This document shows, piece after piece, positions 52,672-55,406 of a stretch of DNA of 64,000 bases. Origin of the DNA: an uncultured Bacteroidales bacterium (GTDB lineage: Bacteria; Bacteroidota; Bacteroidia; Bacteroidales; Bacteroidaceae); contig CAWBPN010000001.1 of NCBI GenBank assembly GCA_963790715.1, positions 11,902 to 75,901 of the forward strand, in the 5' to 3' direction. Each line of letters starts with the position of its first letter. Position 1 is the first letter of the stretch. A program made the position numbers and the translations under genes. Below the pieces are notes generated by a model. That model did no database searches. It saw nothing but the letters and a program-made list of their open reading frames with translations, and was not told where the DNA came from.

Positions 52672-53208
52672 GTGAATAATAATAAAACTGAAATACGAAC
52701 TAAAAAGAAGAAGCCCTATAAATATCATACTATAGATTCGTTTAGCGAAATGAAGAATATTCTTTATAAAAAAGAAGTACAGGATCTGTTTAATAAATTG
52801 ACTAAAGAGGAATATGAAAAAGACGAAAAAGATGAAAGCCCTACTCTACCGCCGGAAAAAGCGCCTTGGGGATTAAGCACCCTATTAGTATTGCTATTGA
52901 ATATTTTTGAAGGCGTGGTCTGGATTACTTATAAAATAAAACTTGACAGTAAAACACTATATTGTTTCATTAACAAACAGTTCAATCTTAAACTACGCCG
53001 ATATTACAATGCAAAGAATGATGTCGACTCAAGCAATTGGAAACCTAAAGTGGAAAATGATATGAAAAAAGTGACCTCAATAATAATAGAAAAAAATAAT
53101 AAGTTCGGTCACCACCCCGATATGCAGTATGAGAACAATAAAAACGATGATAATAAGTGGGGAAATCATGAAGAAGAAGAAAATAAAGAAGAAGGTGATA
53201 ATTATTAA
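52672..53208 (+). CDS. Hypothetical protein (one TM, highly charged termini)
   Basis: 178-aa ORF with a non-ATG start in the track. AT-rich with low-complexity Lys/Glu/Asn content. Coding status is uncertain. Confidence 0.3.
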   Translation: MNNNKTEIRTKKKKPYKYHTIDSFSEMKNILYKKEVQDLFNKLTKEEYEKDEKDESPTLPPEKAPWGLSTLLVLLLNIFEGVVWITYKIKLDSKTLYCFINKQFNLKLRRYYNAKNDVDSSNWKPKVENDMKKVTSIIIEKNNKFGHHPDMQYENNKNDDNKWGNHEEEENKEEGDNY

Positions 53209-53370: not shown

Positions 53371-53628
53371 ATGAAAAAAGTTAAATATATTGTGGAACAT
53401 AATAATGAATTGAATTATAAAAAAGTACGTACTTTCGGCAAATCCGAGTTGGCACTGCTCTATAGCCCCGACTCTCAACCTAAGGTTGCCGTTGCCACAC
53501 TTAACAGATGGATACGTAGAAACAAAGAATTGGCAAAAGCTCTTGCCGCTATCGGATACAACAATAACCGCCATACATTTTTCAGTCGCGAAGTGGCTCT
53601 GATTTTCAAATATATCGGTGAACCGTAA
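53371..53628 (+). CDS. DUF4248 domain protein
   Basis: 85 aa. ..FGKSELALLYSPDSQPKVAVATLNRWIRRNKELAKALAAIGYNNNRHTFFSREVALIFKYIGEP matches the DUF4248 pattern (ELA.LY.P....A...L..WI.....L...L...GY...). Confidence 0.75.
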   Translation: MKKVKYIVEHNNELNYKKVRTFGKSELALLYSPDSQPKVAVATLNRWIRRNKELAKALAAIGYNNNRHTFFSREVALIFKYIGEP

Positions 53629-53929
53629 AATTACTATAACGCCCAATAATAATGGTTTTACAGTATCCGATAATAACCTCTGTAACCGTGGAACAATGTC
53701 CGGAAAACGTGAAACATAAAAAGCGATGTTGCCGGACAACTGTGAATCAAGACTAATAAATAGTGAAAGAATGTTGTTGTCAAATCCTGAATTTGTTGTA
53801 AATGACAGTCAATAATCGGTGAGAGACATGTAAAATTGTGGTTTTGATGAGCCGTCGTGGAACAATGGCGAAAAATCACGATTTTTCGACGATAATTGAG
53901 GTTCTGTGAAACGATCTTGCAAAACACTT

Positions 53930-53968
53930 GAAACGCTCTGGGAAGCAATGTGCTTCCCAGAGCGTTTC
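53930..53968. other. Perfect 18-bp-stem hairpin/palindrome
   Basis: GAAACGCTCTGGGAAGCA-atg-TGCTTCCCAGAGCGTTTC. A third, imperfect arm CTTTCCCAGAGTGTTTCAAG lies at about 53996-54015. Confidence 0.85.
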
Positions 53969-54108
53969 AGTCTGTAACTCAGAGTGTTGGCGATGCTTTC
54001 CCAGAGTGTTTCAAGCGGCATCTATTTGTATTGTCTTTTCCTGTTTCTTTTGCTCACTGTTAATGTAAGATATGTTCGCTTTTATTAGCATTATGAAATT
54101 TAACGCCG

Positions 54109-54641
54109 AATCTCAGTCTCAAATCAGTGCCTTTCCCCCTTTTTTGAACGTCATAACTCACATACCGTCAACACTTACCATTTTTCACCTCAAAATTCTC
54201 TTAGTTAATATCATATTTTTTATTTATCATATATATAATAATATTAATATAATATTATATTAGCAATAAATATAAACAAATAAGTATCAGTAGAATAAAT
54301 AGAAAAACAGAAAATAGCAACAGTAAAATTTAATTTACGTAGACATTATTTCCCAGTCTCAGTGAGACAAAATTGAGACAGCATAAAGGTTAATTTTACT
54401 AAAGTTAATTTAAGGTTGTCTCAGTTTGTCTCATGTGAGACAAAATTGAGACAATGACAGAAAATTATAATCACTTATAAATCAGAGGTATAGGTTTTTT
54501 GGCGAAGGGTTTATTAAGATATTGTTTGGTTTATTTAACACCGTATTTTATTCACTTATAACATCGATAAATAAAAGCATACGGCATGATTTCAGTGATG
54601 TATGGGGAAAGGGGGGAGGGGGTTGATTTGAGACTGAGATT
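54109..54641. repeat. 533-bp AT-rich segment bounded by perfect 18-bp inverted repeats and rich in GTCTCA/TGAGAC motifs
   Basis: IR-L is AATCTCAGTCTCAAATCA (54109-54126). IR-R is TGATTTGAGACTGAGATT (54624-54641). Internally, GAGACAAAATTGAGACA occurs at 54364-54380 and 54437-54453, and there are palindromes GTCTCAgTGAGAC and TGTCTCAtgTGAGACA. Confidence 0.85.
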
Positions 54642-55040
54642 TTATGGTTATATCCATTAATTATACAATTCTATAATTATATTTATCAACGCAAATATAT
54701 GTTGATTTATATGCTTTTGTATGAACTCTATCCCTCACATCATTAAACACATTCTCTTGAGGAAAAAGATCAGCATAACATATAAATAAGACGATAGTAG
54801 CTACGCTCATATAATATACTTAATCCATTGATTATTACTCAACCATTACGTATATTTTGCACTTTTATGTTATATAACTTTTCATGCTTAAAAATGAAAT
54901 AATTAATGATTAATTGCATCATAATATACATACATAAATCGATACAAAAAATCAAAGTTATATTTTCATTGTAGGGGTATTGTGGGAAAAAGATAAAAGA
55001 GAGAACTTTGTGTAAGATAAAATTAAAAAGATTAAAGATT

Positions 55041-55406
55041 ATGTCAGCACAGAGTGAAATTTATTCAAACTTCCTCTATCGTTACCAAACGGAGGGAGTT
55101 CCCAAAGGGATGTCAATAGAACATTACTGTTTTAAAGAAGGAGTTGAGTACCCGAAGTTCATGAGTTGGTATAGAGAAAACAAAACGAGGTTACACAAAG
55201 AAATTCAGGAAGAGCTAAAAGTTTTTCCGATCAAAGTGTTAGTCGAAAAGACAAACACACCGAATCTTAGTAAAACATCACAGGCGGATAAAATTACAGT
55301 GGAACATCTGTCGATGAAGCTAAGCAACGGCATAGAGATAAATAAAGAGCAAGTGAACTTGCAATCCGTAGTGGAGTTGCTTCAAAATCTATCGACAATA
55401 TGTTAG
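55041..55406 (+). CDS. tnpA: IS66-family accessory protein TnpA-like
   Basis: About 121 aa from MSAQSEIY.. It is the first of three overlapping or adjacent ORFs in the canonical IS66 order. Confidence 0.6.
   Translation: MSAQSEIYSNFLYRYQTEGVPKGMSIEHYCFKEGVEYPKFMSWYRENKTRLHKEIQEELKVFPIKVLVEKTNTPNLSKTSQADKITVEHLSMKLSNGIEINKEQVNLQSVVELLQNLSTIC

Follow-up and report, generated by a model that had tools for sequence, protein, structure and literature searches.

A single-word, iteron-like module placed directly after DUF4248 genes in a Bacteroidales genus

We studied a segment of 533 bp at 54109-54641 of a 64,000-nucleotide (nt) stretch from an uncultured Bacteroidales bacterium; the whole stretch is called the window below, and the module is numbered by its positions. 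This segment forms the core of a ~670-bp non-coding module (54040-54709), which is located 3' of a DUF4248 gene and is studded with one short word, GTCTCA or its complement TGAGAC. The features of the locus are as follows.

53371-53628, plus strand: DUF4248 gene, 85 amino acids (aa; Pfam PF14053, E=3.8e-27), transcribed toward the module
53929-54015, no strand: repetitive extragenic palindrome (REP)-like hairpin between the DUF4248 gene and the module, with a perfect 19-bp stem and a third arm able to pair alternatively
54040-54108, plus strand: left flank of the module, outside the inverted repeat and conserved in alignments
54072-54263, plus strand: doubtful frame of 63 codons, 55 from the ATG at 54093, crossing the left arm
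54109-54139, plus strand: left arm, tandem ATCTCA and GTCTCA, then AATCAGTG, then the C tract CCTTTCCCCC
54150-54350, no strand: AT-rich arm of 11-22% GC with AT-only palindromes
54356-54380, no strand: central cluster 1, one forward word and then two in reverse (GTCTCA g TGAGAC aaaat TGAGAC)
54416-54454, no strand: central cluster 2, a palindrome of four words, two forward and two reverse, with 10-11-bp phasing
54455-54604, no strand: spacer arm; the final word of cluster 2 and the nearest word of the right arm are 182 bp apart (184-187 bp in the sister families)
54605-54641, plus strand: right arm, G tract GGGGAAAGGGGGGAGGGGG, TTGATT, then the tandem reverse words TGAGAC and TGAGAT
54642-54709, plus strand: right flank of the module, outside the inverted repeat; similarity to copies and strains ends at ~54709

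Word sites of the segment and selection on the word

A first-pass annotation, made from the letters of the window, had described perfect 18-bp inverted repeats, and we located them at 54109-54126 and 54624-54641, with the C tract inward of the left arm and the G tract before the right arm. Owing to these two tracts, the complementarity of the arms reaches 34 nt at 85%. The hexamer recurs inside the terminal repeats, as described: each arm consists of two tandem words, an ATCTCA variant and GTCTCA. Both hexamer palindromes were also found, GTCTCAgTGAGAC at 54356-54368 and TGTCTCAtgTGAGACA at 54427-54442. The direct repeat between them is present but measures 19 nt instead of 17, GTGAGACAAAATTGAGACA at 54362-54380 and 54435-54453. 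The count of at least ten copies of GTCTCA/TGAGAC was too high for exact words, of which there are nine, and comes to 11 sites when the two ATCTCA variants of the arms are included.

The density of GTCYCA is ~17/kb in the segment compared with 0.41/kb genome-wide, a ~40-fold enrichment, and clusters of at least four such words in 120 bp occur in the 3.5-Mb assembly just at this element and its two paralogues. The interior is very AT-rich, as had been noted, with GC down to 11% at 54200-54299. The lowest GC over 150 bp is 15% in the window module and 12-13% in the sister modules measured in the same genome, which carry other words and are described below. The word map and the GC profile together place opposed sets of the short word on either side of the AT-rich stretch. 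No DnaA boxes were found, which is neutral for a self-loading helicase. Outside the repeat, the left flank at 54080-54109 has just three variable sites among the copies, and a TAnnTTTG-like box at 54071-54078 is intact in 6/9 copies. The ATGAAAT motif of this flank is also present in the sister families, and the GGGGAA.GGAGGGG-type tract of the right arm is common to them.

The window copy (c1) is one of three copies in the assembly; the others, both on contig C18, are c2 (C18:206627-207419, 88-90% identical) and c3 (C18:1016747-1017489, ~81% identical). Nine more, at 74-93% identity, came from metagenome contigs, eight through a flank-plus-repeat pattern that is neutral as to orientation and one through a called small open reading frame (ORF), which brings the total to 12. 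Searches of 60 relatives, 400 genomes from the bacterial family, one-genome-per-species contigs (by pattern) and viral contigs gave no further copies.

In 10 aligned copies, 7 of the 55 sites at word positions 1-3, 5 and 6 are variable, against 206 of the 467 remaining sites of the segment (Fisher p=3.8e-6). Word position 4 is variable at all 11 sites and alternates solely between T and C. The copies fall into a T-type (GTCTCA; c1, c2, L022, L023, and L029) and a C-type (GTCCCA; c3, L024, L027, and L028), several of the latter retaining T at one or two sites, and L031 is mixed, with C in the arms and T inside. Partner bases move together: the palindrome pair 54431:54438 changes from T-A to C-G jointly in every copy, and the arm pair 54123:54627 shows a double change from A-T to T-A. 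Arm mismatches on the plus strand are balanced (15 G.T and 15 A.C) without strand bias, and changes in the G tract are not compensated in the C tract. Conservation extends to the A-tract spacers and to the 10-11 bp phasing of the direct copies. The balanced mismatches and the joint pair changes point to a constraint on symmetric duplex DNA and not on a one-strand RNA. We conclude that selection acts on the word, that the word is specific to the module, and that its sites drift together.

Sister modules with other words and the pairing with DUF4248

We found modules of the same plan built from other words. Unless Bacteroidales bacterium UBA1794 is named, the sister modules come from the same genome as the window (contigs C10 and C18).

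C10:63480-64356: AACCGCC home module, downstream of the second and last DUF4248 gene in this genome (C10:64395-64595)
C18:77416-78291: AACCGCC orphan paralogue, 91% identical to the C10 module
C10:29590-29840: deleted relic of the AACCGCC module
C18:48780-49400: AAGTGCC module, a third class and an orphan, after groEL

The C10 module begins with two tandem words and a C tract. After them come ~180-210 bp at 13% GC, a palindrome of four words, another cluster of four and a spacer of ~185 bp, and the module ends with the GGGGAAGGAGGGGGG tract and two tandem inverted words. The distance from the left pair to the first cluster is 246 bp for GTCTCA, 226 and 228 bp for the two AACCGCC modules and 244 bp for AAGTGCC; from the last cluster to the right pair it is 182, 185 and 184, and 187 bp, respectively. 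The C and G tracts are the same across the sister modules, and the lowest GC is 12-15%. The AACCGCC and AAGTGCC backbones are clearly homologous (z=16 against local shuffles), and the comparison of AACCGCC with the GAAGTTC module of a sister species gave z=4.9. The GTCTCA backbone is no longer alignable to those of its sister modules, and this shared geometry without an alignable backbone indicates that the architecture outlasts the sequence.

The general layout therefore comprises 11-12 copies of a single 6-9-bp word, with inverted tandem pairs at the ends, C and G tracts inside them, two central clusters including a four-site palindrome, and one arm of ~230 bp at 11-15% GC. By these sequence comparisons, the module is one of a genus-wide family of 'one-word' iteron modules. 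The suggestion of the first-pass annotation that the sites resemble iterons for a dedicated DNA-binding protein fits what was seen: five of the six word positions are conserved, the sites co-drift, and the sister modules swap the word at identical geometry.

Two observations concern the surroundings of the sister modules. Both the AACCGCC and AAGTGCC modules carry in the left flank a direct-repeat array of GTCA(C/T)GC...ATGAAA motifs, with a period of ~42-44 bp in the C10 copy. An ORF of 1511 aa resembling Cas9 (C10:58439-62974) adjoins the AACCGCC home module and its cassette of DUF4248, HU-HIG, amidase and DUF3987 genes.

Other genera of the family have simpler opposed arrays of words around an AT-rich core, e.g., three forward words, 280 bp of AT-rich DNA and three reverse words; one Prevotellaceae genome has four forward words, ~95 bp and four reverse words near DUF4248. 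In L057 (G294:C12, ~1330-1660) and L065, from another genus, three tandem GCGTTGC words are followed by ~280 bp of near-pure AT and three inverted words, and the simple orphan module of L057 follows a gene of 330 aa.

A module lies 3' of 6/6 DUF4248 genes in the genus, within ~200-480 bp. Two of these genes are in the window genome and four in UBA1794, the sole other genome of the genus (56% complete), where the distance is within ~200-330 bp of each gene. The six paired modules carry six different words, GTCTCA and AACCGCC in the window genome and AGAAGTTC, AGTCTAAG, AGTTCCA and AAGTATCA in UBA1794. Their polarity is constant, with the AT-rich arm gene-proximal and the G tract distal. Cassettes of DUF4248, HU-HIG, DUF3987 and amidase genes stand beside capsule loci in many Bacteroidales, and both cassettes of the window genome include an HU-HIG protein, an amidase and a DUF3987 / BT4734-type primase-helicase; HU-HIG beside DUF4248 was confirmed at one UBA1794 locus at least. 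The two cassettes of the window genome share 27% identity in their DUF3987 proteins and 56% in their DUF4248 proteins, and such strong divergence fits different specificities. As to whether the word changes with its initiator, six DUF4248 proteins with six words and two DUF3987 proteins at 27% are too few pairs for a residue-level comparison. A search of the neighbour proteins against PHROGs returned nothing, and the C10 cassette holds no other iteron arrays.

Upstream of the DUF4248 gene lies an ORF of 178 aa (52672-53208), of low complexity, rich in Lys, Glu and Asn and with one hydrophobic stretch. It is without a Pfam or PHROG match and is kept with the DUF4248-module unit in L023, L025, and L030.

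Comparison of these modules shows an architecture of 11-12 sites of a single word with fixed geometry, concerted replacement of the word, and a one-to-one positional link to DUF4248, all at the level of sequence. The strict pairing gives the cassette a concrete, testable cis-site and a natural word-swap experiment.

Borders, orientation and turnover of the copies

The first-pass annotation offered a miniature inverted-repeat transposable element (MITE) as one reading. Like MITEs and other miniature elements (e.g., Correia), the module is small, non-coding, AT-rich and multi-copy and has inverted repeats. In 12/12 copies, however, similarity continues past the inverted repeats, by at least 55-200 bp leftward, spanning the module flank at 54040-54108 and the REP-like hairpin, and by ~55-68 bp rightward to ~54709, which makes the repeats internal to a larger unit and not transposon ends. 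A search of the repeats and the element against the genome returned multiple copies (three) but no target-site duplication; the bases outside the arms, ...AACGCCG and TTATGG..., form no direct repeat. With up to three mismatches allowed, the arm sequence occurs in the assembly (93% complete) just as the six arms of the three copies, so that no autonomous partner is present there, and no element or partner transposase with the same termini was found in the viral or one-genome-per-species contigs. The three copies in the genome differ from each other by 10-20%. The MITE reading was rejected on the flank homology, the missing duplication and the empty partner search. A multi-copy element with a tyrosine recombinase of 323 aa was considered as a sharer of the termini and dropped. 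It is an unrelated repeat of ~3.8 kb that begins with the recombinase (C18:622315-626141 plus 4-5 paralogues on C9, C11, C13 and C18, 85-91% identical).

It is quite unlikely that the module is instead a non-autonomous mobile element moved in trans, in which the words would be transposase or recombinase sites and the ends would lie beyond the inverted repeats. In its favour, the three copies occupy unrelated contexts, and copies are intergenic and usually placed after the terminators of convergent genes; the AAGTGCC module after groEL is missing at that site in the sister species; and one metagenome strain (L028) has a DUF4248-plus-module unit, its DUF4248 gene decayed, upstream of glmS, where the window genome has other cassettes. 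Besides the homology across both repeats, the missing duplication and the restriction to six arms, mobility of this kind is opposed by outer ends that are asymmetric and without terminal repeats. The copies are 10-22% divergent, so any movement would be old. A clean empty site for the GTCTCA family was not obtained; the argS site was sought in the sister species, whose genome is 56% complete.

The strain and species differences mean that modules have been gained, lost or exchanged over time. L026 is 98% identical to the window up to 54709 and then continues into a different capsule locus that ends with the gene of a WbaP-type sugar transferase (L026:4210-7302); by this alignment, 54709/54710 is a recombination breakpoint for the exchange of capsule loci. 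L024 has a C-type module at the same site and is missing the IS66 copy of the window (~54966-57668). This copy (orf1, TnpB-like, DDE transposase) is a simple insertion, as L024 joins 54965 to ~57666-57670, and the junction places the right end of IS66 next to the stop of the wecA-like gene and not beyond that gene. L024 also has ~390 bp (L024:3209-3595) between the right flank of the module and an AT-rich spacer, without a counterpart in the window. The c1 and c2 copies are located at the ends of polysaccharide gene clusters, and the orphan copies stand at the borders of variable regions.

The REP-like hairpin is a separate dispersed repeat with at least 10 further diverged copies that have no module (C10, C12, C13, C16, and C18). 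It scores as terminator-like on the minus strand, and exact-protein look-ups returned only contigs that break at it.

The other reading of the first-pass annotation was an invertible switch. The module resembles the invertible promoters of Bacteroidales (Mpi- or Tsr-dependent), in which a non-coding stretch of a few hundred bp near surface-polysaccharide loci is framed by inverted repeats. A recombinase acting in trans would here flip the 533-bp segment between the 18-bp repeats, and in its favour the perfect repeats evolve in concert, with a compensatory change in L027 and L028, and the TAnnTTTG-like box just outside the left repeat could read inward. However, 12/12 assembled copies and both AACCGCC copies are co-linear with their flanks, under a search pattern that favours neither orientation. 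The assembly has no match to the serine recombinase family (PF00239), and of its 17 matches to the tyrosine recombinase family (PF00589), contig C1 carries none and the surroundings of c2 and c3 are free of them out to 100 kb. No TAnnTTTG box (the Bacteroidetes -7 box) is positionally conserved within the segment. The neighbouring genes mostly converge on the element, with the wecA-like, PIG-L and argS genes on one side and DUF4248 and DUF3256 on the other (the wecA-like gene counts as a neighbour once the later IS66 insertion is removed), and need no promoter from it. Copies of the word also crowd the middle of the segment, where an inverton needs none. The orientation of the copies and the recombinase searches leave the inverton unsupported, and we regard it as very unlikely. 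A structure may have the look of a MITE or an inverton and be neither: its 'terminal' repeats would be just the outermost pair of binding words.

The claim that no ORF lies inside holds in part. The 63-codon frame at 54072-54263 crosses the left repeat, with a coding signal that is weak. The locus might on this account be a small gene or an RNA, namely a hydrophobic peptide of 55-63 aa (type I toxin-like), its mRNA closed by pairing of the repeats, or a structured RNA. The frame is the only one open in all copies (8/8 full copies), its variable sites are fewest at codon position 2 (16/6/21 by codon position) with dN/dS of 0.2-0.7, and a promoter-like box and the ATG are retained in the best-conserved flank. 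Chromosomal type I loci are typically multi-copy intergenic repeats of ~500 bp, as is the module. Against this, the frame stays stop-free in ~10% of simulated-mutation trials, a single database protein resembles it, and in the AACCGCC family the same ATGAAATTT runs into a stop, so the frame is not kept there. We conclude that the frame is probably spurious, judged by its sequence signal, and the small ORF was set aside for its weak signal and its loss in the sister families. The repeats dominate the RNA folds (z of -8 for one strand and -7 for the other), the arm pairing has no G.U strand bias, and the G tract varies without C-side compensation. Rfam 15 gave only chance-level matches of miRNA models on the hairpins, far under the gathering scores. 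The RNA reading was rejected for these repeat-driven folds, the missing bias and the empty Rfam search, and a small gene or RNA of any of these kinds is highly improbable.

A proposed docking site for a cassette protein and its known relatives

We propose that the module is an iteron-type protein-docking module paired with the DUF4248 / HU-HIG / DUF3987 cassette and possibly resembles a replication origin of the kind used by Staphylococcus aureus pathogenicity islands (SaPI) and phage-inducible chromosomal islands (PICI); the probability that we assign to this reading is about 0.42. The words would be candidate binding sites of one sequence-specific protein from the cassette next to them. Position makes the small DUF4248 protein the leading candidate for the reader, and the helix-turn-helix-like C-terminal end of DUF3987 is an alternative. 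Dimers may occupy the palindromes, with additional copies on the phased direct repeats, and if the end pairs were bridged to the central clusters, the two arms would fold into a fixed nucleoprotein complex. In the least certain step, the AT-rich arm would melt and the primase-helicase would be loaded, as at a SaPI/PICI-type origin. Orphan copies with the same word would respond to the same protein in trans. An origin-like role is favoured because opposed short iterons flank an extremely AT-rich arm, because the primase-helicase family of the cassette uses such origins in SaPI/PICI and phages, and because the C10 cassette is without another iteron array and DnaA boxes are absent.

The origin role is also the weakest step of the proposal, and several findings weigh against it. 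The module is in the same cassette as DUF3987 but directly 3' of DUF4248 and 3-5 kb away from the helicase gene, and at one UBA1794 locus at least DUF3987 was not found within 16 kb. The orphan modules, two of them with the GTCTCA word in this genome, lie among housekeeping genes far from any cassette, which is odd for an origin, and the AAGTGCC class has no home copy in the assembly. In other genera, most DUF4248 genes are without a large module behind them, with smaller opposed arrays sometimes near DUF4248 or as orphans. Finally, DUF4248 matched no known fold: the sequence had no match in the PDB, and its confident structural model (predicted local distance difference test, pLDDT, 85.6) matched no solved or viral fold in Foldseek searches of the PDB and BFVD (best E 0.7-1.6), so that DNA binding by this protein is only inferred. 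One paper mentioning DUF4248 (PMC6231650) reports that a deletion in Porphyromonas gingivalis has a pleiotropic phenotype.

The main rival, possible but distinctly less likely, keeps the same cassette protein and gives it another cis docking site, i.e., a partition centromere, a pac-like site or a boundary/insulator, at which DNA would be looped without a start of replication. In its favour, sopB-sopC and parB-parS are arranged in the same way, with a small gene immediately ahead of its multi-repeat site. The position of c1 and c2 at the ends of polysaccharide clusters, and the different capsule locus that starts exactly at the right edge of the module in L026, agree with such a docking site, and orphans among housekeeping genes are easier to explain for a binding site than for an origin. 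However, every family retains an arm of 200 bp at 11-15% GC, for which a centromere or operator has no need; no ParA-type or terminase gene was seen in the scanned cassettes; and c3 and the AACCGCC and AAGTGCC orphans are not beside polysaccharide loci.

A bolder extension, and an unlikely one, is that every DUF4248 gene makes up a private protein-DNA 'address' pair with the module behind it, the genus having six such pairs and six words. Orphans of the same word, at the borders of capsule and other variable regions, would let one cassette act at several chromosomal sites. Such a pair could direct local over-replication by the DUF3987 primase-helicase or set boundaries, and the whole would be a chromosomal, re-addressable multi-site system and no phage or satellite relic.

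Cis sites of the iteron type are well known. The module shares features with three kinds of known system. In the case of SaPI/PICI and phage origins, served by Rep or DUF3987-type self-loading primase-helicases, the likeness lies in words of 6-9 bp opposed around an AT-rich stretch, in a word that differs between related elements as in initiator-iteron specificity pairs, in a DUF3987 gene in the same cassette, and in the absence of DnaA boxes. The module differs in standing beside DUF4248, 3-5 kb from the helicase gene, with a replication role that is putative here, and in its extra features: end pairs that form an inverted repeat at a distance of 520-570 bp, the C and G tracts, two central clusters, and chromosomal orphans.

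Partition centromeres such as sopB-sopC of F and parB-parS of P1 likewise have a gene followed by a multi-repeat cis site, with system-specific repeats in which palindromic and direct copies are mixed; the binding protein of the module is putative. The module differs from these systems by its very AT-rich arm; a ParA-type ATPase was not seen, and DUF4248 showed no recognisable ParB, ribbon-helix-helix or helix-turn-helix fold in the searches made.

The origins of iteron plasmids (R6K, F oriS with incB/incC, and pSC101) also have separated groups of iterons with inverted half-sites in 0.5-0.6 kb of AT-rich DNA, and the geometry of the module suggests a bridging between groups similar to the looping and handcuffing of these plasmids. 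Unlike the direct repeats of 17-22 bp beside a plasmid rep gene, the words of the module are 6-9 bp, stand in both orientations, and are chromosomal and multi-copy. Compared with all of these, the combination of the end-pair inverted repeat, the C and G tracts, the two clusters, the conserved arm lengths, the strict DUF4248 pairing and the dispersal of orphans appears undescribed.

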